Positions 4,865 through 61,029 of a stretch of DNA of 64,000 nucleotides are shown here, in pieces. Position 1 is the first letter of the stretch; each line of letters begins with the position of its first letter. Below the pieces are notes generated by a model that worked only from the letters and a program-made list of their open reading frames with translations, searched no databases and was not told where the DNA came from. The translations under genes and the position numbers were made by a program. Origin of the DNA: Candidatus Omnitrophota bacterium (GTDB lineage: Bacteria; Omnitrophota; Gorgyraeia; Zapsychrales; Zapsychraceae); the NCBI GenBank assembly GCA_020632515.1, contig JACKFK010000004.1, positions 192,068 to 256,067 of the forward strand, in the 5' to 3' direction.

Positions 4865-6172
4865 ATGTATAATATTAATGTATTGTTAAAGAAACGCGAA
4901 GTAGAGAATAAACCGATTAATGTCGCAATTATCGGTGCTGGCTGGTACGGCCGGGGATTGATCCAAGAATTGTGTCATTGGCCGGGGATGACGCCAAAAG
5001 TTGTCATCAGCAAGAATATTAAGAATATCGCGCTGGCCTTTAACGCGGGTGGAGTGGATAAATCTGCCTTGACTGTGGTTAAATCAGCCAAAGATCTTGC
5101 CCAGGCATTTAAGAAGAGTCAATACATCGCGACTGATAATTATGACCTTGTTAATGATCTGCAAGGGATTGATGTTATTTTTGAAGCAACAGGTGATATT
5201 TTAGTCAGTGCAAAGATTGCTTTATCAGCTTTGAATCAAGGCATCCATTTTGTAACGGTTAATTCTGAAATGGATTCCACTTTAGGCTATCAAATTAATA
5301 AACTTTTTCAGGAAAAGAATCTTATCTTCTCTAATAGTGACGGCGATCAGCCAGGGGTAATTTACCGTATGCTGGAGAAGATAACGTCTATGGGTTTTGA
5401 AATTGTTGTCGCCGGTAGCTGTAAAGGATTTATTGATCCGCATAAAAATCCTCAAGATATTGCGCCATGGGTTCGGCAAGGGCATAACCCCAAGATGATT
5501 ACTTCTTTTACCGATGGAACTAAGCAATCCATGGAATTGGCCGTGGTTTCCAATGCGGCCGGACTTTTTCCTGATAAACGGGGGATGCATGGCCCCCGGG
5601 TGACAAAACCCACATTAACTGAGATTTTTTCTAAATTGATAAAGAATCCTGGAGCGGTTGATTATGTGTTAGGTATTGATGGTGTAGATCAAGGCGCTGG
5701 TGTTTTTGTTGTCTGTAAACGGGAAGGCGAAATTATTGCCGAAGATTTACAATATTTGAAGAAAGGTGACGGGCCATATTATTTATTCTTTCGTGATGAT
5801 CACCTATGTTATTTGGAAGCGCCTATTTCCATTGCTGAGGCTGGCCAATTTAACTTAGCATCGATGGCTCCCATTGAATTTAATTCTGATGTTATCACCT
5901 GCGCGAAACGAGATTTAAAAAAGGGAGAAAAAATTGACGGAATAGGCGGATACATGGCCTATGGCGTTATTGACCGGGCCGATGTTAGCCGGCGGGAAAA
6001 TTTATTACCGATGGGGCTTAGTGAATTTGCGGTTTTAAAACAAGATGTCGATCAAGATACACCGATCACTTATGATATGGTTGATTTTTGTGAAGACAAT
6101 ATTGCGCTACAACTTAGAAAAAAGATGGAAGACGAATATCAGAGAAAGGAGCCTCTTACAACAGAGCGATGA
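4865..6172 (+). CDS. NAD(P)-binding oxidoreductase with C-terminal SAF-like domain (COG4091-like, homoserine-dehydrogenase-like)
   Basis: N-terminal Rossmann motif VAIIGAGWYGRG. C-terminal beta-clip-like KRDLKKGEKIDGIGGYMAYG. Size and layout resemble sugar-modifying SAF-domain dehydrogenases. Confidence 0.55.
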   Translation: MYNINVLLKKREVENKPINVAIIGAGWYGRGLIQELCHWPGMTPKVVISKNIKNIALAFNAGGVDKSALTVVKSAKDLAQAFKKSQYIATDNYDLVNDLQGIDVIFEATGDILVSAKIALSALNQGIHFVTVNSEMDSTLGYQINKLFQEKNLIFSNSDGDQPGVIYRMLEKITSMGFEIVVAGSCKGFIDPHKNPQDIAPWVRQGHNPKMITSFTDGTKQSMELAVVSNAAGLFPDKRGMHGPRVTKPTLTEIFSKLIKNPGAVDYVLGIDGVDQGAGVFVVCKREGEIIAEDLQYLKKGDGPYYLFFRDDHLCYLEAPISIAEAGQFNLASMAPIEFNSDVITCAKRDLKKGEKIDGIGGYMAYGVIDRADVSRRENLLPMGLSEFAVLKQDVDQDTPITYDMVDFCEDNIALQLRKKMEDEYQRKEPLTTER

Positions 6173-6293
6173 TAGCGTTTTGTGAAATGTGATTTGATGC
6201 CTGCTGATTAAAAATTTATTCCAATAATCATTTGGCATTAACATAAGGGTAAGTGAAGAAATCTTTTAAAATAGTGTAACAACATATGAATTG

Positions 6294-6327
6294 CCCCATG
6301 GCCGGCTAGGTTCAGCCATGGGTTTTT
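6294..6327 (+). terminator. rho-independent terminator
   Basis: CCCATGGC-cggctaggttca-GCCATGGG is followed by TTTTT. Confidence 0.7.
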
Positions 6328-6348
6328 ATTAATGAGTATTTAATTTAC

Positions 6349-6975
6349 GCGACCAAAGGGAGCGTAAATTATACTGATTCTGAATGAAATTATCTGATCA
6401 TAGAATTATTGAATTTCATTCAACCAGTATAAATAGTTCTTTTTCCAAGAAAATGTTCAGAAATAATTTTTAATTTGAGTAAGAACTATTATAGAAATAC
6501 GAATTAACCCCGTAAAGTACAAAGAAATTGGACGGGGTGAGGATAATTTATCAGCGACCAAAGGGAGCGTAAATTATACTGATTCTGAATGAAATTATCT
6601 GATCATAGAATTATTGAATTTCATTCAACCAGTATAAATAGTTCTTTTTCCAAGAAAATGTTCAGAAATAATTTTTAATTTGAGTAAGAACTATTATAGA
6701 AATACGAATTAACCCCGTAAAGTACAAAGAAATTGGACGGGGTGAGGATAATTTATCAGCGACCAAAGGGAGCGTAAATTATACTGATTCTGAATGAAAT
6801 TATCTGATCATAGAATTATTGAATTTCATTCAACCAGTATAAATAGTTCTTTTTCCAAGAAAATGTTCAGAAATAATTTTTAATTTGAGTAAGAACTATT
6901 ATAGAAATACGAATTAACCCCGTAAAGTACAAAGAAATTGGACGGGGTGAGGATAATTTATCAGCGACCAAAGGA
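6349..6975. repeat. perfect tandem repeat, 3 x 205 bp plus 12-nt partial fourth unit
   Basis: Units start at 6349, 6554, 6759 and 6964 (period 205) and are identical by eye. Each unit has three inverted repeats. In unit 1 these are 6370-6431 (7+11 bp stem), 6432-6490 (10 bp stem) and 6508-6537 (CCCCGT/ACGGGG). There is no ORF of 60 aa or more in 6173-6998. Confidence 0.95.
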
Positions 6976-6998
6976 GTTGGCGGTGTACGTCATAATTT

Positions 6999-8561
6999 AT
7001 GTCTAAACAAATTTTACGTAATATATTCAGTAATTATTTAGTTAATTTCATCCAATTAGCGCTTGGTTTTATCATTGTTCCATTTTTGATTAAGAAATTA
7101 GGCCAAAACGCTTACGGATTGATTGTCTTGGCAGAATCCACCATCGGGTTCTTTGAAATTGTCACGGTCAATATTCGTATCGCCTTGTCCCGGTATGTTA
7201 CGTTTTCAATGTCGCAAGAAAAGTATGATGATTTCATGGAGTATTTATCAGCAGGTCGGTTTATGCTTAACTGCGCCGGTGGGTTGATTCTTATTATTGG
7301 GTCGATCATCAGTTATAATTTTTCCAATATTTTTCAAGTGCCGGATCATTTGGTATCTGAAAGTAAAATTCTTTTCTTTTTGATTATCATCGGATTTTTT
7401 ATTTCCGTGCCCAACATTCTTTACTGGTCAATCCTTTACGCGAAACAGCGCTTTGATCTAATCAACAAAGCAGCCACTGCCGGAATTATGACGAGGGCTG
7501 GATGTGTGTTTATTTTATTTTCAATCTTACCGGATGATCATGTAAATCTAGTCATGTATGGTGTTTTTTATTTATTAATGAAACTCATACAGAACATTTT
7601 GGTTTACCGTTGGCATTTTTCCATGCTTGAAGGAATTAAGATTGTTTATCGTAAATTCAAAATGAGCCGGATAAAAGAGATTGCCTCATTTGGGATTCAC
7701 GCCTCCATTAGTAACATCAGCGGGCTTTTATATAATCAAACCGCGACGATATTAATCAACATTTTCTGGGGACCGCAATACAATACCATCTACGACATCA
7801 GTATGAAATTTCCGAACATGATCAGGAACTTATTTGTTCAAGCCACCTGGACACTGACCCCGACATTTACCGATTACGCGGCGCGAAATGATAAATTAAA
7901 AGTAAAACAATTATTGTTTGTTTACACGAAAGCAATGTCGTTGATTACAATTCCGATCGGCTTTTTATTTATCATGCTGGCTTATCCACTAATATCAATA
8001 TGGGTAGGAGAGCAGTTTGAAATGTCGAGCAAGTTACTTATATGGCATATGATTCCGTTGATTTTTCATATTCCAATGGCAGTAACCAATTGCGTATTTT
8101 TAGCCTACGGCAAGGTTAAATTTCCCAGTTACTTCAGGCTGATAGCCGCGGTGATAAATCTACTTCTTGCGGTTTTTCTGGTGAAATTTTTCAGCTTAGG
8201 ATTATTTGGATTCGCGTACTCAGCCGCGTTAATTATTTTTCTTCAGGCAGGGATCATTGTTCCATGGTACGCGTGTAAAATCACTAAACTTTCTTTGCGT
8301 GAGTACTGGGTTCAAACCTTCCTTATTCCATTTTCCTGGGCTGCCACAATTATTTTTGGCAGTTTCTTTCTGATTCATCAGATTCAATCGGGGAATCATT
8401 TTTCATTATTATTATTCGCGATTTTAACTGTCGCCGCGGTTATTTACATTGTGGGTTCATATAAATTTATTTTAGATCCGACAGAACGAGGCTTTATGCA
8501 GCAGTTTATCCAAAATAAATTTAAAAAGGGGAAGGTTTCTGTAGAGGATAATACAATTTAG
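6999..8561 (+). CDS. wzx: Wzx-type polysaccharide flippase (MOP superfamily)
   Basis: Polytopic membrane protein. The N-terminus NYLVNFIQLALGFIIVPFLIKKLGQNAYG is typical of O-unit flippases. Confidence 0.8.
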   Translation: MSKQILRNIFSNYLVNFIQLALGFIIVPFLIKKLGQNAYGLIVLAESTIGFFEIVTVNIRIALSRYVTFSMSQEKYDDFMEYLSAGRFMLNCAGGLILIIGSIISYNFSNIFQVPDHLVSESKILFFLIIIGFFISVPNILYWSILYAKQRFDLINKAATAGIMTRAGCVFILFSILPDDHVNLVMYGVFYLLMKLIQNILVYRWHFSMLEGIKIVYRKFKMSRIKEIASFGIHASISNISGLLYNQTATILINIFWGPQYNTIYDISMKFPNMIRNLFVQATWTLTPTFTDYAARNDKLKVKQLLFVYTKAMSLITIPIGFLFIMLAYPLISIWVGEQFEMSSKLLIWHMIPLIFHIPMAVTNCVFLAYGKVKFPSYFRLIAAVINLLLAVFLVKFFSLGLFGFAYSAALIIFLQAGIIVPWYACKITKLSLREYWVQTFLIPFSWAATIIFGSFFLIHQIQSGNHFSLLLFAILTVAAVIYIVGSYKFILDPTERGFMQQFIQNKFKKGKVSVEDNTI

Positions 8562-9565: not shown

Positions 9566-10842
9566 AAAAAGTTCTTGTCGTTTCGTATCTTTATTATCCT
9601 TCAACGGAAGTAGGCGCGCGCCGGATATATAATTTAAGAAAATTTCTTAAAGATGAAGAAATCGATGTTACAATCTTAACAGTTGATTTCACACGGTACG
9701 CGGAGCTTGATGAAAGCTTAGATTATCACGGAGAAAAGGTTTTTCGGACTCCCAGTTTTGGGCCGGTAAAAGTCACCAAGCGCGTGATGAATGAATCTTT
9801 TGCAGTCGGCTTCACGCGTCGGGCTGCTTACTTATTAAAGCGTTTGTGCAGTCAAATCCTTTTTCCGGATGAATATATCGGGTGGCGTCCTTTTGCGGTT
9901 GCAAAAGGAATTCGTTTGCACAAAGAAGAAAAATTTGATTACGTTTTGGCCACAGGAAGACCGTGGTCTGATTTTATTATTGGAAGGGCTATCGCGCGAA
10001 AATGTAACATTCCGATTATTCTCGATTATCGTGATCCTTGGACAGCTGATGAAAATATCTTTTTCCCTTCGAGTTTTATTAAGAAAATCAGTCATTGGTA
10101 TGAACAGCGTTTGGTCAGATATGTCGATAAGATCATTGTCAATACGGAAGCGGTAAAAGAATTATTCTTAAAACATTTTCGGCATAATCTGGAAGGTAAA
10201 ATTTTTGTTGTTACCAATGGGTATGATCCGCAGACGGCAGAGCGTTTAGAAAAAGCATCTGTTGACCGCGGCGATCATACCGGTCAAGGGATGTGCCGTT
10301 TGATTCATACCGGCTCATTTTTTGAATCTCGCTCCTTGGAAACATTGATTCAAGCCATGCATCAACTGCATGAAGAAAAAATTATTCATCCTGACAACTT
10401 TGAAATTCTCTCTTATGGTCCGCTTTTAGGAAAAGATAAACGTCTTTTACAGCAGCTCAATCTAACAGCCTTTGTTAAAGAACATAGTTTTATTCCGTAT
10501 TTTGATTCTTTGAAAATGTTATGTAAATCATCAATGAATCTGCTGATTGTCGGCAGTGGTCATGGATCAATGATCCCGGCGAAACTATTTGATTATCTAT
10601 TAGCGCGGCGACCTATTTTTTGTGTTGGCCCTGAGGTTTCTGAAGCGGGTAAGATTATTAAAGCCCATGATTATGGATTTTACGCCCGTATCAATGATCC
10701 TAAAGATATTGCTGTTAGATTACGTGATGCGATTAATTTATATCGACAGGGAAAAATGCAAGAACCGTTAACGGTTCCGGATCAGTACAGTATCCGCAAT
10801 CAAGTTCATCGCCTAGCAGTATTATTAAAAGGCGGGTTATAA
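9562..10842 (+). CDS. GT-B fold glycosyltransferase (GT4-like)
   Basis: The N-terminus MKKVLVVSYLYYPSTEVGARR is typical of GT-B enzymes. It has a 4-nt ATGA overlap with the upstream GT2. No clear EX7E motif. Confidence 0.55.
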   Translation: MKKVLVVSYLYYPSTEVGARRIYNLRKFLKDEEIDVTILTVDFTRYAELDESLDYHGEKVFRTPSFGPVKVTKRVMNESFAVGFTRRAAYLLKRLCSQILFPDEYIGWRPFAVAKGIRLHKEEKFDYVLATGRPWSDFIIGRAIARKCNIPIILDYRDPWTADENIFFPSSFIKKISHWYEQRLVRYVDKIIVNTEAVKELFLKHFRHNLEGKIFVVTNGYDPQTAERLEKASVDRGDHTGQGMCRLIHTGSFFESRSLETLIQAMHQLHEEKIIHPDNFEILSYGPLLGKDKRLLQQLNLTAFVKEHSFIPYFDSLKMLCKSSMNLLIVGSGHGSMIPAKLFDYLLARRPIFCVGPEVSEAGKIIKAHDYGFYARINDPKDIAVRLRDAINLYRQGKMQEPLTVPDQYSIRNQVHRLAVLLKGGL

Positions 10843-10860
10843 CGGATAAAAAGGTTTATT

Positions 10861-12012
10861 ATGGCGGAGAAAATTAAAGTATTACATTTGATAAATTCAC
10901 TGAAACTCGGCGGGGCAGAGGTAAATTTAATAAATATCATCGAGGCGAGTGACTTAGATCAATTTGACGTTCATGTCGGGTTCGCTGAAACAGGACCATT
11001 ACAAGCCCGCTTTGAACATTGTCCTATTGCTCTTTTTCAGTTTGTTCAAAGAGCGCATAAAGTGAAAAGTTTGCGGTCATTGCTGACAATACTAACGATC
11101 GCTAACTATATTCGTCAAAATAAAATTGATGTGATTCATACGCATTCATTCAGTACCCAAGCTTGGGGCGCGCTGGCTGGAAAATTAACTGGAGCTAAAG
11201 TTTTGGAACACGTCCACGACGGGCGTTACGCGGATCCTGTTTTTCTGCGCAGCCGGGGCGCGAATCCGGATCAATTTAAATTAGCCAAACAGTTAAACCG
11301 TTTTTCTGACAAGGTTCTTGTGCTGACGAAAACAAATGAAGATTACATGCGAGAAAAGCATCTATGCGCGATGAACAAAGTTGAACGGTTGTTAAATGGC
11401 ATTCCGCTATCACAAAATGGAATCCGTAAGGCTGAAGATATTTTTGTTCGCTATCCACAGCTGCGGGAGCGGAAGATTGTTTTTATGGCCGCGCGCTTGG
11501 CCGAAGGAAAAAATCTGGAAATGATTTTTGAGCTGGCTGCTCAATTAAAGGATGATTATCCGGAAATTTTGTTTCTTGTCGCCGGTGACGGCCCTTTAAT
11601 GGAAAAGCTTAAAATTGAGAGCAAGCAAAAAGATTTAGAAAAGCATATTTTATTTATTGGTTTTTATACGCCTGTAAAGGAATTGCTTAATATTAGTGAT
11701 ATTGTGATTCATCCATCGCTGATGGAACTTCATTCGATTACAGTGATTGAAGCTTTAAGCATGGAAAAGCCGGTGTTGGTTTCGCAGCATGTTGGCTGTC
11801 ATGATGAATGGTTTACTCATCGACAAAATGCTTTTTTGTTAGATCCGTATCAACCGCAACAATGGTCTGTGGTGATCCGTGAATTATTCGAGGATGATTT
11901 CTTAAGTAAAGAAATTTCCAAGAAGGGGCGATTATTAGCGGAACAAACATGTGATATTAAAAAAGTAGTAAATCGGATTCAAAATTTATATAAAGAATTA
12001 ACCATAAAGTAA
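10861..12012 (+). CDS. family 4 glycosyltransferase
   Basis: KVLHLINSLKLGGAEVNL N-terminus and an EX7E motif (ELHSITVIE). Confidence 0.85.
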   Translation: MAEKIKVLHLINSLKLGGAEVNLINIIEASDLDQFDVHVGFAETGPLQARFEHCPIALFQFVQRAHKVKSLRSLLTILTIANYIRQNKIDVIHTHSFSTQAWGALAGKLTGAKVLEHVHDGRYADPVFLRSRGANPDQFKLAKQLNRFSDKVLVLTKTNEDYMREKHLCAMNKVERLLNGIPLSQNGIRKAEDIFVRYPQLRERKIVFMAARLAEGKNLEMIFELAAQLKDDYPEILFLVAGDGPLMEKLKIESKQKDLEKHILFIGFYTPVKELLNISDIVIHPSLMELHSITVIEALSMEKPVLVSQHVGCHDEWFTHRQNAFLLDPYQPQQWSVVIRELFEDDFLSKEISKKGRLLAEQTCDIKKVVNRIQNLYKELTIK

Positions 12013-26250: not shown

Positions 26251-26483
26251 TAAGTCAGAAACAAGTCATAAGGTCACAATGTCACAATGTCACAATGTCA
26301 CAAAGAGGCTAAGTCACAAGGTCATAAAGCTTCCGTTTTCTTTTTTTCTGGTCACCAGCGACTGGAGACCGGAGACTGATACACGGTGGCTTTGTGACAA
26401 AAGTTTCAGATATGCGCTGGTGTGACGTTGTGACTTTTACACGGTGACTTGGTGACTATTAGCTATCAGTCATCAGCCTTCAG
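26251..26483 (+). repeat. intergenic repeat mosaic S4a (left of IS copy 1)
   Basis: GTGGTAA/GTGATAA heptamers start inside the wecB 3' end (26240-26260). Eight phased 8-mers occupy 26265-26328. These are followed by the AAGCTTCCGTTTTCTTTTTTTCTGGTCACCAGCGACTGGAGAC module, one GTGAC-box unit and CAGNNNT heptamers. Confidence 0.9.
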
Positions 26484-26568
26484 TTAAAATGAATAATTGT
26501 GTCCTCCCATCCTAGGAGTTAACCTAGGATGAGAAAGAATAATAACCCAAAAAAGGAGGACACAAGTT

Positions 26569-27600
26569 ATGATAACAATCGGCGTTGATTTTCACAAGCA
26601 AACATCAAGTTACCATGTTTTAGATGAAAACGGAAAATTTCTTAAACGTTGTAAACTAAAAAATAATGAAGAAAATATCCGTAAATTTATTCAAAGTTTT
26701 CAAGGCCCAAAACAAGTCGCTATGGAAGCCACTCGTAATTGGGGAATATTTTTCGAATGTATCAAAGATTTAGTTGACGATTTTCAATTAGGACATCCTA
26801 AGAAAATGAAAGCCATAACAGACTCTGAAACAAAGAACGACAAGCATGACGCTCAAATGATTGCCAAACTAACTTACAGTAAGTTTTTACCTAAGGCTCA
26901 TGTAAGTCATTTAGACAATCGCCAATTACGAAGCCTTTTACGCTATCGTCATTTTCTTGTTAAGCAACGCCGCGCGATTCGTCAACAAGTTCAAACGTTA
27001 ATTGATCGTAATCTCTGGCCGTGTGATCGTCCCAAAGCGTTCAAAGATATCTTTTGTAAAAAAGGCATTCAATGGTTAAAAAGCATTACATTACATGAAA
27101 GAGAACGATTCATTCTCGATCAAGCATTAGAATCTTTTGAAGACTTAAGTCGGCGCATTCTTCAAATCGAAGATTACGTTAATCAACAAACAGCTGAACT
27201 TAAAGGCTTAGAATATTTACGAACAACGCCCGGCTTTAAAACAAGCCGTGTTAACGCCTATATTGTCTTATTAGAAACCGATGACATTCATCGTTTTCGT
27301 AAAGCGAACGGCTTTGCTCATTACGCCGGCTTAGTTCCACGTGAACATTCTTCAGGTTCAAAACAACGTCACGGCCGATTAGTTAAAAATGCTAATATGC
27401 ATTTAAGAACCGCTTTTATTGAATCAACTTTAGCCGCTATTCGTTTAGACAAAGGTCTTAAAAGTTATTACAAGAAAGTTAAAAAATCCAGCGGATCTGG
27501 CTCCGCCATCATTGCCTGTGCCCGTAAATTATCTTATGCTGTTTATCATGTTTTAAAAGATCAACGCCCTTATCGGGCTGAATCACCTGTAGCCGCCTGA
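26569..27600 (+). CDS. IS110-family (DEDD / IS116-IS110-IS902) transposase
   Basis: N-terminal ITIGVDFHKQ (DEDD RuvC-like). C-terminal YAGLVPREHSSGSKQRHGRLVKNANMHLRTAF. RBS AAAGGAGG. Confidence 0.92.
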   Translation: MITIGVDFHKQTSSYHVLDENGKFLKRCKLKNNEENIRKFIQSFQGPKQVAMEATRNWGIFFECIKDLVDDFQLGHPKKMKAITDSETKNDKHDAQMIAKLTYSKFLPKAHVSHLDNRQLRSLLRYRHFLVKQRRAIRQQVQTLIDRNLWPCDRPKAFKDIFCKKGIQWLKSITLHERERFILDQALESFEDLSRRILQIEDYVNQQTAELKGLEYLRTTPGFKTSRVNAYIVLLETDDIHRFRKANGFAHYAGLVPREHSSGSKQRHGRLVKNANMHLRTAFIESTLAAIRLDKGLKSYYKKVKKSSGSGSAIIACARKLSYAVYHVLKDQRPYRAESPVAA

Positions 27601-27780
27601 TAGCTGCCGCCTGTTTGCTTTTGCAATCGAGGTCTCTCTCAGTTTCGCGGTACTTGGTGATCAATTTTATTTTGAGTGTCTTTTTGACGACTCCAATACT
27701 AGCTTATTCACATTTTTTTGTAGTGACTTTGCGTTCTTTAAACATTTTTTTCGAACTATTGACACAATTATTCATACTAG
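27601..27780 (+). ncRNA. candidate transposon-encoded guide RNA region (bridge/seek-RNA-like), copy 1
   Basis: A 180-nt non-coding tail lies 3' of the transposase, versus only 85 nt at the 5' end. Internal ATACTAGCT (27696-27704) equals the right junction (27774-27782). Internal GCGTTCTTTAAACAT (27731-27745) resembles the left junction GCNTTCAGTTAAAATG. Confidence 0.35.
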
Positions 27781-28077
27781 CTATCAGAAAGTATAGTCTC
27801 CTGTCGCCAGGATACAGTGACCAGTACTGGTTGCTGAAGACTTGAGACTAGCGACTGATACCAACAACTGACACGGTGACATTGTGACAAGAGTTTCAGA
27901 TATGCGCTGGTGTGACATTGTGACTTTTACACGGTGACATTGCAACATTGGTTAAACCATAAACAAACCTCGGAGGTTTGTTTACGGTTATGAATCGGAC
28001 AGCTAACACGGTGACATTGTGACAAAAGTTTCAGATTTGAGCTGTTGTGACTTTTAAACTGATAACGAAAGGTTTTC
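27781..28077 (+). repeat. intergenic repeat mosaic S4b (right of IS copy 1)
   Basis: Rest of the heptamer module, hairpin GTCTCCTGTCGCCAGGATAC, the CCAGTACTGG palindrome, two GTGAC-box units and the 31-nt palindrome. Confidence 0.9.
27957..27987 (+). repeat. 31-nt palindromic hairpin element, copy a
   Basis: CCATAAACAAACCTC-G-GAGGTTTGTTTACGG (one A/C mismatch). Confidence 0.85.
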
Positions 28078-29556: not shown

Positions 29557-29771
29557 GTTGCTCGTTGCTAGAAAAAGTCACAAGGTCACAAAGTCACAAA
29601 GTCACAAGGTCATAAAGCTTCCGTTTTCTTTTTTTCTGGTCACCAGCGACTGGAGACTGGAGACTGATACACGGTGGCTTGGTGACACAAGTTTCAGATT
29701 TGAGTTGTTTTGACGTTGTGACTTTTACACGATGACTTGGTGACTATTAGCTATCAGTCATCAGCATTCAG
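29557..29771 (+). repeat. intergenic repeat mosaic S6a (left of IS copy 2)
   Basis: TAAGTTGCT(CGTTGCT)AGAAAAA, five 8-mers (29577-29616), the AAGCTTCCG...GGTCACCAGCGACTGGAGAC module, one GTGAC-box unit and heptamers. Confidence 0.9.
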
Positions 29772-29856
29772 TTAAAATGAATAATTGTGTCCTCCCATCC
29801 TAGGAGTTAACCTAGGATGAGAAAGAATAATAACCCAAAAAAGGAGGACACAAGTT

Positions 29857-30888
29857 ATGATAACAATCGGCGTTGATTTTCACAAGCAAACATCAAGTTA
29901 CCATGTTTTAGATGAAAACGGAAAATTTCTTAAACGTTGTAAACTAAAAAATAATGAAGAAAATATCCGTAAATTTATTCAAAGTTTTCAAGGCCCAAAA
30001 CAAGTCGCTATGGAAGCCACTCGTAATTGGGGAATATTTTTCGAATGTATCAAAGATTTAGTTGACGATTTTCAATTAGGACATCCTAAGAAAATGAAAG
30101 CCATAACAGACTCTGAAACAAAGAACGACAAGCATGACGCTCAAATGATTGCCAAACTAACTTACAGTAAGTTTTTACCTAAGGCTCATGTAAGTCATTT
30201 AGACAATCGCCAATTACGAAGCCTTTTACGCTATCGTCATTTTCTTGTTAAGCAACGCCGCGCGATTCGTCAACAAGTTCAAACGTTAATTGATCGTAAT
30301 CTCTGGCCGTGTGATCGTCCCAAAGCGTTCAAAGATATCTTTTGTAAAAAAGGCATTCAATGGTTAAAAAGCATTACATTACATGAAAGAGAACGATTCA
30401 TTCTCGATCAAGCATTAGAATCTTTTGAAGACTTAAGTCGGCGCATTCTTCAAATCGAAGATTACGTTAATCAACAAACAGCTGAACTTAAAGGCTTAGA
30501 ATATTTACGAACAACGCCCGGCTTTAAAACAAGCCGTGTTAACGCCTATATTGTCTTATTAGAAACCGATGACATTCATCGTTTTCGTAAAGCGAACGGC
30601 TTTGCTCATTACGCCGGCTTAGTTCCACGTGAACATTCTTCAGGTTCAAAACAACGTCACGGCCGATTAGTTAAAAATGCTAATATGCATTTAAGAACCG
30701 CTTTTATTGAATCAACTTTAGCCGCTATTCGTTTAGACAAAGGTCTTAAAAGTTATTACAAGAAAGTTAAAAAATCCAGCGGATCTGGCTCCGCCATCAT
30801 TGCCTGTGCCCGTAAATTATCTTATGCTGTTTATCATGTTTTAAAAGATCAACGCCCTTATCGGGCTGAATCACCTGTAGCCGCCTGA
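29857..30888 (+). CDS. IS110-family transposase (identical 343-aa product)
   Basis: Same translation as 26569..27600. Confidence 0.92.
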   Translation: MITIGVDFHKQTSSYHVLDENGKFLKRCKLKNNEENIRKFIQSFQGPKQVAMEATRNWGIFFECIKDLVDDFQLGHPKKMKAITDSETKNDKHDAQMIAKLTYSKFLPKAHVSHLDNRQLRSLLRYRHFLVKQRRAIRQQVQTLIDRNLWPCDRPKAFKDIFCKKGIQWLKSITLHERERFILDQALESFEDLSRRILQIEDYVNQQTAELKGLEYLRTTPGFKTSRVNAYIVLLETDDIHRFRKANGFAHYAGLVPREHSSGSKQRHGRLVKNANMHLRTAFIESTLAAIRLDKGLKSYYKKVKKSSGSGSAIIACARKLSYAVYHVLKDQRPYRAESPVAA

Positions 30889-31068
30889 TAGCTGCCGCCT
30901 GTTTGCTTTTGCAATCGAGGTCTCTCTCAGTTTCGCGGTACTTGGTGATCAATTTTATTTTGAGTGTCTTTTTGACGACTCCAATACTAGCTTATTCACA
31001 TTTTTTTGTAGTGACTTTGCGTTCTTTAAACATTTTTTTCGAACTATTGACACAATTATTCATACTAG
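30889..31068 (+). ncRNA. candidate transposon-encoded guide RNA region, copy 2
   Basis: Identical to 27601-27780. Confidence 0.35.
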
Positions 31069-31302
31069 CTATCAGAAAGTATAGTCTCCTGTCGCCAGGA
31101 GACAGTGACCAGTACTGGTTGCTGGAAACTTGAGACTAGCGACTGATACCAACAACTGACACGGTGACATTGTGACAAGAGTTTCAGATATGCGCTGATG
31201 TGACGTTGTGACTTTTACACGGTGACTTTGTGACACAAGTTTCAGATTTGGGTTGTTGTGACATTGTGACTTGTCGATAGCTAAGAACCGGATAACGGAC
31301 TT
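31069..31302 (+). repeat. intergenic repeat mosaic S6b
   Basis: Heptamer remainder, hairpin GTCTCCTGTCGCCAGGAGAC, CCAGTACTGG, two tandem GTGAC-box units and CGATAGCTAAGAACCGGATAAC. Confidence 0.9.
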
Positions 31303-32326: not shown

Positions 32327-32355
32327 TTGACAATGTGGATATATGGTATTATAGT
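32327..32355 (+). promoter_or_regulatory. sigma70-type promoter of AAA+ ATPase 1
   Basis: TTGACA-17 nt-TATAGT. The GTG at 32335 used by the ORF track lies inside the spacer. Confidence 0.65.
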
Positions 32356-32391
32356 TATACTGCAAATGATATATATGAAATTATGGTAAAC

Positions 32392-33696
32392 ATGATTATT
32401 CAACGTGATATTATACACAAAATTAAACCTTTTTTAGAGCGCAGGGAATGTTTAGCCCTTATCGGCCCGCGGCAGACAGGAAAAACTACTCTTTTACAGC
32501 TAATTACAGACTATTTATATAAAGAAAAAAATGTTGATAAGGAATTGGTAAAGAGGATCAGTTTTGAAGACCGGAAACTGTTGTTTCAATTTGAAAAAGA
32601 TCCTTGTGAATTTGTTAGATCTTATTGGCCGGGGGCTGCCAAGCAAACGTTTTACTTTATGATTGATGAGTTTCAATACGCCAGCGAAGGTGGACAAAAG
32701 TTAAAACTGATTTATGACACCTTTACCAATCTTAAGCTATTGATTACAGGATCATCATCTCTGGATCTGCGGGCGCAGGTGGGAAAATATATGGTAGGAC
32801 GGATATTGAGTTTTTATATTTATCCGTTTAATTTTCATGAAATCTTAAAAACGAGGTCTTCTCGTTTAGAACGCGCTTACGCACGGCAAAACAAACAAAT
32901 TAAAAATTGGCTCTTTGAAAATCAACCCCTGGATTTGAAAAAAGGTGATGATTTGTTACACGAGGAAATGACAAAAGCCTTTGAAGATTACTGTGTTTGG
33001 GGCGGGTACCCGCAAATTGTCCTTACAGAAGATATTGAACAAAGAAAGAAAGTTTTAAATGATCTTTATAACAATTATCTTTTAAAAGACATTAAAACAT
33101 CATTAGAGTTGGCCACAGAAAAAGAGCTTTATAAACTTTCGCAATATATCGCGACACAGGTAGGACAGATTACGGTTTATCAGAATTTATCTCAGGCCTC
33201 AGGGCTTGAGTACCGGACTTTAAAAAAGCATTTATCGATTTTAGAAGAAACATTTATTATTAAAAGTGTAACGCCGTTTTTCAGAAATAAACAGAAAGAG
33301 CTGTCGCGGAATCCTAAAATATTTTTCTTGGATATGGGGTTTCGCAACGCGCTTATCGACGATATCAATGATCTGGAAAAAAGGCCCGATGCCGGGAACA
33401 TGGTGGAAAATACGGTATATGTACAGCTTTTAAAAAACTTTATACAGGCTGATAAATTAAATTTTTACCGGACTAAAATGGGCTCAGAAATTGATTTTAT
33501 CACATGGAATAACCACGCCATTATTCCAATGGAAGTTAAATATAAAGTTTTTAAACAAGAGCAGATTTCTAAAGGATTTCGTAGTTTTATTGAGCAGTTT
33601 AAGCCGGAGAAGGCCATTGTTTGGACAAAGAACTTCTGGGGGATGCTCGAAGAAAATGGAACGCAGATTTTGTTTGCACCGGGGTATTATTGTTAA
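32392..33696 (+). CDS. AAA+ ATPase, COG1373 type (AAA_14 + DUF4143), paralog 1
   Basis: Walker A GPRQTGKTTLLQ and Walker B FYFMIDEFQY. The start was moved to ATG 32392 (32383 is also possible) because of the upstream promoter. Confidence 0.8.
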   Translation: MIIQRDIIHKIKPFLERRECLALIGPRQTGKTTLLQLITDYLYKEKNVDKELVKRISFEDRKLLFQFEKDPCEFVRSYWPGAAKQTFYFMIDEFQYASEGGQKLKLIYDTFTNLKLLITGSSSLDLRAQVGKYMVGRILSFYIYPFNFHEILKTRSSRLERAYARQNKQIKNWLFENQPLDLKKGDDLLHEEMTKAFEDYCVWGGYPQIVLTEDIEQRKKVLNDLYNNYLLKDIKTSLELATEKELYKLSQYIATQVGQITVYQNLSQASGLEYRTLKKHLSILEETFIIKSVTPFFRNKQKELSRNPKIFFLDMGFRNALIDDINDLEKRPDAGNMVENTVYVQLLKNFIQADKLNFYRTKMGSEIDFITWNNHAIIPMEVKYKVFKQEQISKGFRSFIEQFKPEKAIVWTKNFWGMLEENGTQILFAPGYYC

Positions 33697-34078
33697 GTTG
33701 CTAGAAAAGATCGCAAAGTGACCTTGTGACTTTCTGAAAGTTGACGACTGAAAGTGAAAGCTAAGAGTCGGACAACTGACACGGTGCCATTGTGACAAAA
33801 GTTTCAGATTTGAGTTGTTTTGACGCTGTGGCTTTTACACGGTGACTTTGTGACACAAGTTTCAGATTTGGGTTGTTGTGACATTGTGACTTGTCGATAG
33901 CTAAGAACCGGATAACTGACACGGTGCCATTGTGACAAGAGTTTCAGATTTGAGCTGTTGTGACCTTGTGACTTGTTGACAGCTGACATCTGAATTGATT
34001 AAAACCGTAAACAAACCTCCGAGGTTTGTTTGTGGTTAAGAACCGGATAACTGACAATTCGACATTTCAGATTGTTAT
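33697..34078 (+). repeat. intergenic repeat mosaic S8
   Basis: TAAGTTGCTAGAAAA at the stop and inverse heptamers. Three 58-nt GTGAC-box units at 33779-33836, 33837-33894 and 33919-33976. The 31-nt palindrome is also present. Confidence 0.92.
34005..34035 (+). repeat. 31-nt palindromic hairpin element, copy b
   Basis: CCGTAAACAAACCTC-C-GAGGTTTGTTTGTGG. The two non-Watson-Crick positions are G.U-compatible on the + strand only. Confidence 0.85.
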
Positions 34079-34107
34079 TTGACAAAATGACTATCATACT
34101 GTATAAT
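34079..34107 (+). promoter_or_regulatory. consensus sigma70-type promoter of AAA+ ATPase 2
   Basis: TTGACA-17 nt-TATAAT, both hexamers perfect. Confidence 0.75.
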
Positions 34108-34150
34108 TACTTTATAAAATGATATTATTTATTGAGGATAAGGGGCAGAA

Positions 34151-35350
34151 ATGATTGATTTTAAGGCCATCTTTGAATATGACCGTTTAGCCAAAGAAGA
34201 AGGAAAGAAATATCAGAAACGACGATTTTTTTATAATGAAATCGTGCAAACGCAGGGAAAACATTTCACTGGTATTCTGGGTGCCCGCGGAGTAGGTAAA
34301 ACAATTTTATTAAAACAGCTGGCTTGTGAACAGCCGCAGTCACTTTATGTTTCTCTGGATGCGGTTGATGTTGATCTTTTTGAACTGGCTAAGAAAGCCA
34401 AAGAAGAGTTTAAGATTCAATCGCTGTTGCTGGATGAGGTGCACTTTCATCCGCGATTCCAGGAAAATCTGAAGAAAATTTATGATTTTTTGGATATTCA
34501 AGTAATTTTTACCAGCTCTATTGCCTTAGCGTTAATTGAATCGCAATATGATCTTTCACGAAGGGTTTTGTTAAAGAAGTTATATCCGTTTTCATTTCGT
34601 GAATATCTTTATTTTAAATATGACGTGGAATTTCCTTCGCTGACATTTGATCAGATTATTCAAAAGGAAGTAGATTCAAAATTCTTTTCCTACAGTCAGA
34701 ATTTTAGTGATTATCTGCAAGGAGGTATTTTCCCTTTTGCCATTGAAGAACCGTTTGTTTTGGATTTGCTTAAGAATGTGGCTGCTAAAGTTATTCGTAA
34801 AGATATTCCCCGCGTCACTGATATCAGTGTATCGGAAATTGAAATTATCGAAAAAGTGCTTCAGTTTATCGGAACATCCGGGATTGATGGAATTAATTAT
34901 TCATCGATCTCACAGAACTGCGGCATTACTAAATATAAAGCGCAGCAATATGTCGAGTTGTTAGAAAAAGCGTTTATTATTCATCAGATTTTTCCTAAAG
35001 GAACAAATGTGCTGAAAGAGCCGAAGATTTTAATGGCTGTTCCCTATCGCTTGCTTTACACGGATTTTCAAAGGGCTTTAGGAGGATTAAGAGAAGATTT
35101 TCTTGTGGAAATGATGCGTTCTTTGGGGAAAGAAATTTATTATTTGAAATCAACCCGCGGCCAAAAAACACCGGATTATTTGTTAACACATCAACAGAAG
35201 AATGTTGTTGTTGAAGTCGGGGGAAAAGGAAAAGGCCGACAGCAGTTTAAAGGGATTGTGCCTGACCAGAAAATCATCGCTGCCGACGCGGTAACATTTG
35301 ATGAATTGCGCCGTCCGTTATTTTTGTTTGGATTTTTAAGTGATAAATAA
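34151..35350 (+). CDS. AAA+ ATPase, COG1373 type, paralog 2
   Basis: Walker A GARGVGKTILLKQ, Walker B LLLDEVHF, and LYPFSFREYL as in the other paralogs. Confidence 0.75.
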   Translation: MIDFKAIFEYDRLAKEEGKKYQKRRFFYNEIVQTQGKHFTGILGARGVGKTILLKQLACEQPQSLYVSLDAVDVDLFELAKKAKEEFKIQSLLLDEVHFHPRFQENLKKIYDFLDIQVIFTSSIALALIESQYDLSRRVLLKKLYPFSFREYLYFKYDVEFPSLTFDQIIQKEVDSKFFSYSQNFSDYLQGGIFPFAIEEPFVLDLLKNVAAKVIRKDIPRVTDISVSEIEIIEKVLQFIGTSGIDGINYSSISQNCGITKYKAQQYVELLEKAFIIHQIFPKGTNVLKEPKILMAVPYRLLYTDFQRALGGLREDFLVEMMRSLGKEIYYLKSTRGQKTPDYLLTHQQKNVVVEVGGKGKGRQQFKGIVPDQKIIAADAVTFDELRRPLFLFGFLSDK

Positions 35351-35648
35351 GTCTCCTGTCGCCAGGAGACAGTGATCAGTAAGAAACAACCGATTCAACT
35401 TCGTAAGTTGAACTAGGTTTACTTGTGACTTTCTGAAATCTGACAGCTGAAAGCTAAGAACCGGATAACTGACACGGTGACATTGTGACAAGAGTTTCAG
35501 ATTTGAGTTGTTTTGACGTTGTGACTTTTACACGGTGACTTGGTGACACAAGTTTCAGATTTGAGCTGTTGTGACTTTTTGACAGCTACGCACCGGATAA
35601 CTGACACAGTGACATTGTGACTTTTGTACGAAACATGAAAGGATTTTT
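35351..35648 (+). repeat. intergenic repeat mosaic S9
   Basis: Hairpin GTCTCCTGTCGCCAGGAGAC (35351-35370), the 33-nt hairpin, inverse heptamers and two tandem GTGAC-box units, ending in GTGACATTGTGAC just before the gmd RBS. Confidence 0.9.
35388..35420 (+). repeat. 33-nt hairpin motif, copy 2
   Basis: AACCGATTCAACTTCGTAAGTTGAACTAGGTTT, identical to copy 1. Confidence 0.85.
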
Positions 35649-36737
35649 ATGACAAAAAAAGCGCTTATAACCGGCGTGACCGGACAAGATGGGGCTTATT
35701 TAGCAGAATTATTATTAGATAAAGGCTATGAGGTGCACGGCATCAAACGCCGCAGTTCATTATTTAACACGCACCGGATTGATCATCTTTATAGAGATTT
35801 ACACGAACGCGGGGTAAAGTTTAAACTTCATTACGGCGATATGACGGATTCCACCAATTTGATCCGCATTATTCAGGAAGTTCAGCCGGATGAGATTTAT
35901 AATTTAGCCGCGCAATCGCATGTTCAAGTTTCGTTCGAAACCCCGGAATACACCGCCAATGCCGACGCGCTGGGCACCTTGCGTGTTTTAGAGGCGATTC
36001 GTATTCTGAAACTGGAAAAGAAAACTAAAATTTATCAAGCGTCCACGTCGGAGCTTTACGGCAAGGTGCAAGAGATTCCTCAGCGGGAAACCACACCGTT
36101 TTATCCGCGCAGTCCCTATGGTGTGGCCAAACTCTACGCGTATTGGATCACGGTCAATTATCGCGAGGCATACGGTATGTTTGCTTGCAACGGAATTTTG
36201 TTCAACCACGAATCACCGATCCGTGGAGAAACCTTTGTTACGCGTAAAATCACCCGCGCGGCCAGCCGGATCAAATGCGGCTTGCAGCAAAAACTATATT
36301 TAGGAAATCTTGATGCCAAACGCGATTGGGGTCATGCTAAGGATTATGTGGAAGGCATGTGGCGTGTCTTGCAGCAAAAGCAGCCGGATGATTATGTATT
36401 GGCGACCGGCAAAACCCAGTCGGTGCGGGAGTTTGTGGAATTTGTTTTCACGGAGCTTGGCATCAGTATTAAGTGGAAGGGTAAAGGCATTCATGAAAAA
36501 GGCATTGATCAAGAAAGCGGCAAGAGTTTGATTGAAGTGGATAAAAAGTATTTTCGTCCGACGGAGGTGGATATCCTTTTAGGGGATGCGTCCAAGGCGC
36601 GCCGAAAATTAAAGTGGAAACCGAAATACACCATGCAGGAATTAGCTAAAGAAATGGTGGCCGCGGATTTGGCCGAGGCCGAAAAAGAAGCGCATCTGAA
36701 AGGAAAAGGCTATTCGGTGTTGGAGTTTAATGAATAA
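35649..36737 (+). CDS. gmd: GDP-mannose 4,6-dehydratase
   Basis: [35 protein letters not shown]...STSELYG...[10 protein letters not shown]. Confidence 0.95.
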
Positions 36738-36850
36738 AAGTCGCAAAGTCACCGTGTCAGCTTTCAGCTATCAGTCTTCAGCGATCAGAAAACCACAAAC
36801 AAACCTCCGAGGTTTGTTTGTGGTTAAGAACCGAATAACTGACTTACTAT
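36738..36850 (+). repeat. intergenic repeat mosaic S10
   Basis: GTCGCAAAGTCAC, CAGNNNT heptamers, the 31-nt palindrome and TTAAGAACCGAATAACTGAC. Confidence 0.9.
36793..36823 (+). repeat. 31-nt palindromic hairpin element, copy c
   Basis: CCACAAACAAACCT-CCG-AGGTTTGTTTGTGG, a perfect 14-bp stem. Confidence 0.85.
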
Positions 36851-37894
36851 ATGAATAAAAACGCACGCATTTACATTGCCGGCCATCGCGGGATGGTGGG
36901 CTCAGCGATCACACGCAAATTAGAAGCCGAAGGCTATACGAATCTGCTTAAGCGCACGCATAAAGAATTGGATTTAACGCGCCAGCAAGAGACTGAAGAT
37001 TTCTTCGCGCGGGAAAAGCCGGAGTATGTTTTTATTGCGGCCGCCCGTGTGGGCGGGATTATGGCCAACAGCACGTATAAGGCGGACTTTATTTATCAGA
37101 ACATCATGATCGCGGCCAATATCATTGAAGCCTCACGTAAGTTCGGTGTAAAAAAACTTTTAAATCTTGGCTCGACGTGCATTTATCCTAAGCTGGCGCC
37201 GCAGCCGTTAAAAGAAGAATCTCTGCTGACCGGTCCGTTAGAACCGACCAACGATGCGTATGCCGTGGCCAAGATCAGCGCGATCCGCTTGTGTCGGCAT
37301 TATAATGAACAGCATGGCACCAATTTTATTTCCGCGATGCCGACGAATCTTTATGGGCCTAATGATAATTATGATCTGTTTGCGTCACATGTATTGCCGG
37401 CCATGATCCGTAAATTTTATTTAGCCAAAAAATTGGCAGAGAATGATTTCACTGCCATTGCCAACGATTTTAAAAAACGAGGGTCATTAATTAAGGAAGG
37501 TCAGACAGAGTTGTCGAAAAAGGAGGTTGTGCCGGCACTTGCAAGTTTTGGGATTCGCGCGGATTCCGTCACATTATGGGGGACAGGTTCACCCTACCGG
37601 GAATTTCTTCATGCCGATGATTTAGCCCAGGCGTGTTTATTTTTGCTGCTCAACTGCGATGCTAAAGATATTGGGGAATTTGTCAATGTTGGCAGCGGTC
37701 AAGAGCATACCATCAAAGAAATAGCCGTCATGGTTAAAGACATTGTTGGGTTTTCCGGGGAAATCACCTGGGATACATCCAAACCTGACGGCACCCCGCG
37801 TAAAATCAGCGACGTTTCCCGCATTAACAAACTCGGCTGGCGCAGCACTATTGACCTTAAGACTGGGATTGAAAGCGTTGTTCGAGAGTTGTAA
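36851..37894 (+). CDS. fcl: GDP-L-fucose synthase (GDP-4-keto-6-deoxymannose 3,5-epimerase/4-reductase)
   Basis: RIYIAGHRGMVGSAI...FIAAARVGGIMAN...YAVAKI...PTNLYGPNDNY. About 25 aa of insertion relative to typical Fcl. Confidence 0.9.
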   Translation: MNKNARIYIAGHRGMVGSAITRKLEAEGYTNLLKRTHKELDLTRQQETEDFFAREKPEYVFIAAARVGGIMANSTYKADFIYQNIMIAANIIEASRKFGVKKLLNLGSTCIYPKLAPQPLKEESLLTGPLEPTNDAYAVAKISAIRLCRHYNEQHGTNFISAMPTNLYGPNDNYDLFASHVLPAMIRKFYLAKKLAENDFTAIANDFKKRGSLIKEGQTELSKKEVVPALASFGIRADSVTLWGTGSPYREFLHADDLAQACLFLLLNCDAKDIGEFVNVGSGQEHTIKEIAVMVKDIVGFSGEITWDTSKPDGTPRKISDVSRINKLGWRSTIDLKTGIESVVREL

Positions 37895-37898
37895 GAGT

Positions 37899-37931
37899 AA
37901 CCGATTCAACTTCGTAAGTTGAACTAGGTTT
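37899..37931 (+). repeat. 33-nt hairpin motif, copy 3 (mosaic S11)
   Basis: AACCGATTCAACTTCGTAAGTTGAACTAGGTTT lies 4 nt after the fcl stop. Confidence 0.85.
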
Positions 37932-37939
37932 GCGCTTAG

Positions 37940-37968
37940 TTGACATGTCGTATAAAATAATGTATATT
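37940..37968 (+). promoter_or_regulatory. sigma70-type promoter of AAA+ ATPase 3 (leaderless or near-leaderless mRNA)
   Basis: TTGACA-17 nt-TATATT. The -10 box ends 5 nt before ATG 37974 and 8 nt before ATG 37977. Confidence 0.65.
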
Positions 37969-37973
37969 TTACG

Positions 37974-39233: not shown

Positions 39234-39565
39234 TATTTCAGTCTTCGGTCGCCAGGAGAGATCAAGTCGCAAAGTCGCAAAGTCACAAGGTCACAAGGTC
39301 ACAAGGTCACAAGGTCACAAAGTTTCCAGATTTCAAATACGGTGGCTTTGTGACTATCAGCCATCAGCGTTCAGCTATCAGCTATCAGAAGAAAAAAATC
39401 TGATCGCTGAAATCTGAAAGCTGACGACTGAAAGCTAAGAGCTGGATAAGTGACATGGTGACATTGTGACTTTTTCACGGTGACTTTGTGACTAGAGGAT
39501 TAGATTTGGATTGATGTGACTTTGTGACTTGTTGAAAGCTAGGAGTCGGATAACTGACTTTACCC
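39234..39565 (+). repeat. intergenic repeat mosaic S12
   Basis: Degenerate CCAGGAGAG hairpin and seven 8-mers (39266-39321). A heptamer array holds a second intact IS-target-like site (CATCAGCGTTCAG|CTATCAG, junction 39374/39375). An A-rich centre is followed by inverse heptamers and a GTGAC-box unit. Confidence 0.9.
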
Positions 39566-39594
39566 TTGTCTAATGAGCGTTAATAGTGTATAAT
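39566..39594 (+). promoter_or_regulatory. sigma70-type promoter of abiEi-abiEii
   Basis: TTGTCT-17 nt-TATAAT. Confidence 0.6.
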
Positions 39595-39602
39595 TTCAGT
39601 AT

Positions 39603-39621
39603 ACTGTCAAAATATGACAGT
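39603..39621. promoter_or_regulatory. palindromic operator candidate (AbiEi autoregulation)
   Basis: ACTGTCA-aaata-TGACAGT lies just downstream of the -10 box. A further TGACAG half-site is at 39644-39649. Confidence 0.45.
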
Positions 39622-39634
39622 TTTATGAAAAAAT

Positions 39635-61028: not shown

Positions 61029-61029
61029 A

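Follow-up and report, generated by a model that had tools for sequence, protein, structure and literature searches.

The 64,000-nucleotide window analysed here (positions 192,068 to 256,067 of contig JACKFK010000004.1, assembly GCA_020632515.1, from a Candidatus Omnitrophota bacterium) contains a perfect tandem array of a 205-bp non-coding unit, located directly upstream of the first of the two wzx flippase genes in the window. We are confident that this array is a real amplification of the slippage type. More cautiously, and on balance, we interpret it as a young, lineage-specific amplification of the leader or control region of wzx, similar to a variable number tandem repeat (VNTR) or macrosatellite, and not as an independent RNA gene. 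Any effect of the array would, according to our analysis, be exerted in cis only. The sequence of the unit is new, while the kind of feature, an intergenic VNTR or promoter tandem repeat, is already known.

Direct comparison of the three units (Table 1) revealed identity at 205 of 205 positions, and Tandem Repeats Finder (TRF) reported a period of 205, 3.1 copies, 99% matches and a score of 1254. The base-for-base identity described in the initial annotation of this DNA is therefore correct, and we also agree with its conclusion that such identity implies a very recent amplification. The self-match at period 205 spans positions 6349-6974 of the window. TRF sets the start of the array at 6341, because the preceding 8 nt (TAATTTAC) show a weak likeness to the end of the unit (TAATTTATCA). 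At the opposite end, the fourth copy is not a 12-nt start, as had been proposed, but consists of 11 exact nt, or of 13 nt with a 1-nt deletion, since the exact stretch is followed by GGAG in place of GGGAG. The GC content of the unit is 29%, compared to 37% for the whole window. Stop codons occur in all frames of the unit, and its longest open reading frames (ORFs) comprise only 29 amino acids (plus strand, hydrophilic) and 34 amino acids (minus strand, TTG start), which supports the earlier view of a non-coding repeat. Neither ORF possesses a Shine-Dalgarno sequence or a Pfam or NCBIfam match, and a look-up found the product of the 34-aa ORF on record in no public assembly. With its identical, non-coding units in head-to-tail arrangement, the array has the structure of a VNTR.

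The position of the array fits a 5' control region of wzx, yet no sigma-70-like site was found on the plus strand. The gap between the preceding DRL gene and wzx measures 826 bp (6173-6998), as initially stated, and contains no ORF of 40 or more amino acids. The location of the array, behind a terminator and immediately before the first flippase gene, was also correctly recognised, and the Pfam matches of the gene product are those of a Wzx-like protein. Unique DNA flanking the array is limited to about 13-14 nt from the terminator tail onwards and to 24 nt ahead of the wzx start codon. Since nearly all gap DNA after the terminator is array, hardly any DNA other than the unit is available to control wzx.

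A tandem array with at least two copies is real and not an artefact of a single assembly. We located further contigs via the exact flanking proteins that are encoded on public contigs. The start of one of them, JAGQKR010000036.1 from the metagenome-assembled genome (MAG) GCA_020430025.1, lies 14 nt ahead of a unit-to-unit junction, and its sequence matches the window without a difference over 254 nt. Further downstream the two sequences diverge, with 63 differences over 4.3 kb that form two clusters at 8009-8072 (wzx) and 9828-10938 (a GT4 glycosyltransferase gene), so this contig represents a different strain. In the array and the DNA around it, the two MAG strains do not differ. The two-cluster pattern itself points to recombination tracts and not to uniform divergence. 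The Logan contigs of the runs SRR12358675 and SRR12358676 stop at 6378, and those of SRR12358675, SRR12358676 and SRR14234113 begin at 6945. In these k=31 graphs, each position is offset inwards from the left or right edge of the periodic region by exactly 30 nt (k-1). A de Bruijn graph must branch at such points, so the reads hold both unit-to-unit and unit-to-flank edges. No assembly crossing the gap with a single copy is on record, and the orientation of the array is the same in all assemblies. The single-copy assembly artefact that the initial annotation considered is therefore excluded by the junction in the second MAG together with the contig breaks in three Sequence Read Archive runs.

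The probable origin of the array can be read from its ends. Both end points fall inside two imperfect direct repeats of about 20 nt, which are 205 bp apart, share the form TAATTTA(C/TCA)GCGACCAAAGG(G)AG and represent half-copies of a hairpin, hp0, that is described below. The copy in the left flank reads TAATTTAC-GCGACCAAAGGGAG and the copy at the right end TAATTTATCAGCGACCAAAGG-AG. Exact microhomology of 11 nt at the ends of a duplicated segment is what slipped-strand misalignment or unequal exchange between short direct repeats classically leaves behind. Ancestrally, the segment would have been present as a single copy bounded by the two direct repeats, and slipped-strand misalignment or unequal exchange between them would have generated the first duplication. 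Identical 205-bp units would then permit easy further expansion and contraction, from which we infer that the copy number is unstable. Each added unit would contribute 205 nt and four hairpins to the leader or promoter-proximal region of the wzx-glycosyltransferase operon, and it would also multiply any operator or promoter within that region. As with promoter tandem repeats, the number of copies would thereby probably influence how much transcript extends into wzx. Judged from position alone, a tuning of wzx-operon expression by copy number is plausible.

The three inverted repeats per unit that had been noted are real and fold as described, each better than shuffled controls. The first hairpin (hp1, 6369-6432) has a folding energy of -17.8 kcal/mol (z -4.5), the second (hp2, 6432-6490) of -11.7 kcal/mol (z -2.8) and the third (hp3, 6507-6538) of -13.5 kcal/mol (z -2.9). 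For the whole unit, the fold amounts to -47.3 kcal/mol on the plus strand (z -3.9) and to -37.3 kcal/mol on the minus strand (z -2.5). Hairpin hp1 is a true palindrome, with the same stability on either strand. A U-tract follows none of the unit hairpins on either strand; this includes hp3, which has an 18-nt loop. The terminator upstream of the array is present as annotated, with an 8-bp GC-rich stem, an inner 2-bp stem and a tail (Table 1), and it was missed by the consensus scanner because its loop exceeds 8 nt. While the three named hairpins were thus confirmed, the count of three missed a fourth one, hp0, which lies at the left edge of the array and reappears in bulged form at the junctions.

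This hairpin straddles the left edge of the array, with its 5' arm in unique DNA, and its loop and 3' arm are formed by the first 22 nt of unit 1. It is the sole match to its stem pattern in the window, where 0.02 are expected. At both unit-to-unit junctions a bulged version with an extra CA (hp0') is rebuilt, which folds at -9.5 kcal/mol (6542-6578). The scan of genomes described below led to a 45%-GC contig of a Planctomycetales MAG (L008), of which positions 6-34 are identical to the hp0 sequence AATTTACGCGACCAAAGGGAGCGTAAATT (6342-6370) at 29 of 29 positions. A second hairpin on that contig (132-159) has the same stem and a different interior. This hairpin and hp0 share one layout, namely stem, GA, 2-bp mini-stem, loop, GA and stem, and the mini-stem covaries between the two Planctomycetales hairpins from CC/GG to AC/GU. 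The two Planctomycetales hairpins open both units of a diverged tandem duplication of about 126 bp upstream of tRNA-Pro, which copies the first 13 nt of the tRNA gene too. In both genomes with hp0, each unit of the respective tandem duplication thus carries the hairpin at its start. A covariance model (R1) built from three sequences, hp0 of the window and the two Planctomycetales hairpins, scored 54 bits for the intact hp0 (6339-6373) and 34 bits for each hp0' (6542-6578 and 6747-6783). It gave no other matches in the window and no new members in 260 kb of collected sequence beyond the window and the Planctomycetales contig. A stem-only scan of viral contigs revealed one phage locus with a plain loop, about the chance expectation. 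The 29-nt identity across two phyla, Omnitrophota and Planctomycetota, is an oddity, and hp0 is the residual novelty of the locus. It is improbable, in our estimation, that hp0 is a functional element common to both phyla, which marks or triggers the tandem duplication of the DNA that follows it, or the 5' part of a novel cis-regulatory RNA with several hairpins that is iterated before wzx.

No 20-mer of the unit occurs elsewhere in the window on either strand, and a word-7 BLAST of the unit against the masked window gave chance-level matches only. BLAST searches in distant mode against plasmid and phage collections gave no match. The first 20 nt of the unit were found at four loci among 185,579 species-representative genomes (one per species). 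Three of these loci extend to 21-22 nt only, which fits chance, and the fourth is the Planctomycetales contig with hp0. Scans with the two hp1 arms retrieved 13 JGI metagenome loci and one viral match, none with further similarity. The collection scans need exact words, so that copies below roughly 90% identity would be missed; within this scope, the check for dispersed copies that the initial annotation proposed yielded none in the window, plasmids, phages, genomes or metagenomes. The unit also stands outside the known RNA families, as had been suspected: a search of Rfam in E-value mode (E ≤ 10) over 5900-7300 gave a best E-value of 2.1 and only irrelevant eukaryotic families, and at the gathering threshold there were 0 matches in the whole window. 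With no homologue in these searches, no covariation is seen for the unit.

Conservation in relatives, the absence of which, combined with a lack of transcription, had been named as evidence against the proposal, is not seen either. Outside the species, the nearest DRL homologues share 50-57% identity (best 57%), and in three relatives that we compared 20-120 bp separate the DRL gene from the next one. The Omnitrophota MAG GCA_042571725.1 (L030, 3374-10651) possesses nearly the same gene set (DRL, GT2, BNR/sortilin, Wzx, GT4, GT1) in another order, with intergenic gaps of 28-67 bp. The loci of the three relatives contain neither a long gap nor a long-period repeat, show no similarity to the gap of the window and lack hp0. 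The gap, and the unit with it, is therefore specific to this lineage.

With respect to transcription, a consensus promoter scan of 6100-7100 detected no site on the plus strand. The sigma-70-like site that recurs in each unit lies on the minus strand, and a site of the same quality is present in 23% of shuffled units. A second scan, which gave no plus-strand site of 9/12 or better in the unit, does detect sites ahead of other genes in the window, including a perfect consensus (TTGACA-17-TATAAT, 12/12) at 34079-34107, some 45 nt ahead of the DUF4143 ATPase gene at 34151, and the sigma-70 consensus therefore applies in this organism. Since no plus-strand site of this quality was found in the gap, a multiplication of promoters by the array is unsupported. 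For its transcription, wzx may rely on read-through of the terminator or on a promoter of non-canonical type. The motif AAAGGAG at -28 to -22 from the wzx ATG was rejected as a Shine-Dalgarno sequence because it is too far from the start codon; only about half of the genes here have a Shine-Dalgarno sequence. A JUMPStart/ops leader of the RfaH type was also rejected, since GGCGGTGT at 6979-6986 fits the ops core GGCGGTAG at 6 of 8 positions only. One-mismatch matches to this core occur 24 times in the window, where 16.6 are expected. No regulator gene adjoins the array.

Some observations weigh against a young VNTR-like amplification as we propose it. Nowhere in the 826-bp gap, the units included, is there a plus-strand sigma-70-like promoter of at least 9/12. 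The structure of the unit exceeds that of shuffled controls (z -3.9), which need not be the case for a purely neutral repeat. All datasets are multi-copy and no single-copy allele is on record, which could reflect selection for an unseen function. Copy-number variation has not been directly observed; outside this assembly at least two copies are documented, and the figure of three is that of this assembly, whose contig is the only one to resolve the array. Finally, the homologue search by exact words would have passed over more diverged copies of the unit.

The number of copies deserves separate consideration. The true array might hold two or more than three units, with the three perfect copies reflecting the walk of the assembler through a 205-bp graph cycle. 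Perfect identity is the expected output of a resolved graph cycle, and all short-read assemblies break at the array. However, a single copy is excluded by the unit-to-unit junction in a second, independent MAG and by the breakpoints in three runs, and assemblers collapse tandem repeats more often than they expand them, as argued in PMC12817950. A true copy number other than three is thus possible, though we do not consider it probable. A different question is whether selection maintains the array as a contingency locus, with a unit that carries the promoter, operator or leader element of the operon and a copy number that is kept to set or switch exopolysaccharide expression, in the sense of phase variation by promoter tandem repeats. 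Surface-polysaccharide loci are classic targets of phase variation. Moreover, the unit fills the whole control region from the terminator to wzx, the multi-copy state is found in four independent datasets from two strains, and there is a precedent in Mycobacterium tuberculosis (PMC12817950). Such selection is unlikely all the same, since the unit lacks a promoter-like site on the plus strand, no copy-number polymorphism was seen and a regulator gene is not adjacent. The two strains are also almost identical outside the recombination tracts, so that shared ancestry explains the shared array without selection.

The idea of a three-hairpin RNA module or of tandem small RNA (sRNA) genes, which the initial annotation put forward, found no support: neither a homologue nor covariation was found in the collections searched, hp1 is equally stable on both strands, no sigma-70-like promoter faces wzx and the U-tracts are missing. 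In its most concrete version, an sRNA would be encoded on the minus strand of each unit, starting from the TTTACG-17-TATAAT site (10/12) and comprising the stable unit hairpins, a single-stranded stretch CUCCCUUU similar to an anti-Shine-Dalgarno sequence, with CUCCCUUUGG complementing the Shine-Dalgarno-like AAAGGGAG, and hp3 as the terminator. However, equally good promoter sites arise in 23% of shuffled units, the predicted start lies inside the 5' arm of hp2, hp3 with its large loop lacks a U-tract on both strands, the scans and Rfam gave no homologue, and known multicopy sRNAs are diverged paralogues, in contrast to the perfect copies here. We regard tandem sRNA genes as very improbable. 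Even less credible is a mobile or recombinase-driven element, be it a dispersed repeat similar to miniature inverted-repeat transposable elements (MITEs) or repetitive extragenic palindromes (REPs), a series of integron-like cassettes with hp0 as the folded recombination site, or an invertible promoter segment. It is true that hp0 occurs at every unit boundary, that the identical hairpin opens tandem units in an unrelated Planctomycetales MAG, and that the hp1 arms of neighbouring units flank a 143-bp segment with the only promoter-like site, which now faces away from wzx. Nevertheless, the window, genome and metagenome scans revealed no dispersed copies, terminal inverted repeats and a target-site duplication are absent, hp0 has no attC-type core sites, and the array shows one orientation in all assemblies. 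The window encodes no integrase or invertase, only IS110 transposases about 20 kb away. A young amplification of the wzx leader by slippage remains our preferred interpretation.

Several established classes were also tried and rejected. MITE-, REP- or BOX-like dispersed repeats do not apply, since exact-word scans and BLAST found no other copies in the window, genomes, metagenomes, plasmids or phages. For tandem sRNA genes, the only promoter-like site is the minus-strand one and no U-tract follows the hairpins. The 29-aa hydrophilic and 34-aa TTG-start ORFs, with no Shine-Dalgarno sequence and no family match, do not fit type I toxin-antitoxin systems (Ldr/Rdl, Ibs/Sib). A CRISPR array is excluded because the whole 205-bp period is identical, leaving no spacers, and there are no cas genes in the window. 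Against integron cassettes or an inverton speak the lack of a tyrosine or serine recombinase in the window, the lack of a GTTRRRY core in hp0 and the single orientation. Riboswitches, sRNAs, self-cleaving ribozymes and leaders of Rfam, as well as viroid-like elements, were dismissed for want of an Rfam match.

The nearest documented analogue are the promoter tandem repeats or mycobacterial interspersed repetitive unit VNTR (MIRU-VNTR) loci of M. tuberculosis, which likewise consist of identical or nearly identical non-coding units arranged head to tail directly upstream of an operon (PMC12817950). Slippage or recombination alters the number of their copies at 1e-2 to 1e-3 per chromosome, with an effect on expression in cis that is proposed to lie in an altered promoter strength (PMC12817950). 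In contrast, the unit described here is longer (205 bp versus about 50-100 bp), no promoter was found in it, copy-number polymorphism was not observed, and the host belongs to the uncultivated Omnitrophota. BOX elements of Streptococcus pneumoniae and the bacterial interspersed mosaic elements (BIMEs) and REPs of Escherichia coli are intergenic, hairpin-forming and modular, with variable internal tandem modules, and can affect the expression or mRNA stability of their neighbours. The array shares with them the intergenic location, the hairpins and the modular tandem repeats. However, tens to hundreds of copies of those families are dispersed over each genome, whereas the unit was found at a single locus. 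Several structured units of about 100-200 nt lie side by side in intergenic regions also in the case of LhrC1-5 of Listeria and Qrr of Vibrio. Those sRNAs have diverged from one another as paralogues, and every one has a clear promoter and a Rho-independent terminator, while the copies here are perfect and neither a promoter nor a Rho-independent terminator was found for them. Finally, the type I toxin-antitoxin repeats of E. coli, the long direct repeats (LDR) and Sib/Ibs, resemble the array as long intergenic tandem direct repeats with small ORFs and strong RNA structure. They differ from it in that the unit ORFs show no Shine-Dalgarno sequence, no clear transmembrane toxin profile and no family match.

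Table 1. Positions of the array, its hairpins and the neighbouring signals and genes in the window
Feature	Position	Strand	Description
DRL-type NAD-dependent oxidoreductase gene	4865..6172	+	Pfam PF21135 at 1e-40; last gene of the upstream export/initiation module
Intrinsic-terminator-like hairpin	6295..6330	+	hairpin 6295-6322, then UUUUUAUU; fold -15.4 kcal/mol
hp0	6342..6370	+	29-nt hairpin AATTTACGC-GA-CC-AAA-GG-GA-GCGTAAATT; fold -14.9 kcal/mol, z -6.1
Repeat unit 1	6349..6553	+	205 bp, 29% GC; contains hp1, hp2 and hp3
Sigma-70-like site	6488..6516	-	TTTACG-17-TATAAT (10/12); faces away from wzx; recurs at 6693-6721 and 6898-6926
Repeat unit 2	6554..6758	+	identical to unit 1; junction hairpin hp0' at 6542-6578
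Repeat unit 3	6759..6963	+	identical to unit 1; junction hairpin hp0' at 6747-6783
Partial fourth copy	6964..6974	+	GCGACCAAAGG; with upstream TAATTTA the right-hand member of the ~20-nt direct repeat
Small hairpin	6978..6992	+	TGGCG/CGTCA; within the 24 nt between array and wzx start codon
Wzx-type flippase gene	6999..8561	+	Pfam PF13440, PF01943; opens a long co-directional operon

The array separates two parts of a polysaccharide gene cluster, the flanking proteins of which NCBI assigns to Candidatus Omnitrophota/Omnitrophica MAGs. According to Pfam, the upstream module encodes a BBP2_2 porin, a Bac_transf initiating transferase, a Poly_export/SLBB protein, a Wzz-like protein and the DRL protein. 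Downstream of the gap, genes for Wzx, glycosyltransferases (GT2, GT4 and GT1), a BNR/sortilin protein, Wzy and further enzymes follow on the plus strand with short gaps. This is one of two Wzx/Wzy-type polysaccharide clusters in the window; the other one extends over 41.8-58.4 kb, with wzx at 43492-44943 and wzy at 49916-51364. One MAG contig (L001) ends at 6279, just before the terminator, and positions 291-658 of an ENA contig (L034) correspond to window positions 5914-6281 only (99.7% identity), embedded in unrelated DNA. That both contigs break at about 6279-6281 suggests a border between modules or a site of recombination here, with the conserved export genes on one side and the variable wzx/glycosyltransferase module on the other.

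The window contains further repeats and mobile elements. A dispersed intergenic repeat family, unrelated to the 205-bp unit, extends over 22.1-41.3 kb and consists of sub-units of about 58 nt that are rich in GTGAC-N3-4-GTGAC (for example 26340-26568, 27850-28077, 31138-31302, 33758-33990, 35451-35648 and 39396-39634). Often two to three sub-units lie in tandem directly upstream of genes, and 8-bp arrays of the AAGTCACA type are found nearby at 26261, 28715, 29574, 32127 and 39264. Possibly, this family acts as a shared element in regulation or recombination. Two IS110-family transposase genes (26569-27600 and 29857-30888) are located inside a 1657-bp direct repeat (26286-27942 and 29574-31230, 98.7% identity), the copies of which are 3.3 kb apart and flank an APS kinase gene. 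The non-coding ends of these elements gave no Rfam match, such as to a bridge-RNA-type family. Four genes for DUF4143/AAA_14 ATPases and an AbiEi/AbiEii toxin-antitoxin pair (32335-41133 and 59218-60399) are scattered among sugar-nucleotide genes between the polysaccharide clusters, and this stretch looks like a mosaic rich in mobile elements. At 60528-61554, two ORFs overlap in different frames (60528-61028, with a weak TacA-like match, and 60973-61554) and could represent either a toxin-antitoxin pair or a single gene with a frameshift.

On present evidence, we consider the array an ordinary young repeat in the control region of a gene and not a genetic element of a new kind. It breaks all short-read assemblies of the locus, and the read depth over the 205-bp unit could act as a strain marker. 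The array also marks the border between the conserved export module and the strain-variable wzx/glycosyltransferase module. The Omnitrophota are uncultivated bacteria with very small cells, which are possibly host-dependent, and variation of the cell surface is likely to matter for them. If the copy number changes the output of the wzx operon, the array would represent a first case of VNTR-type control of surface polysaccharide in the Omnitrophota.

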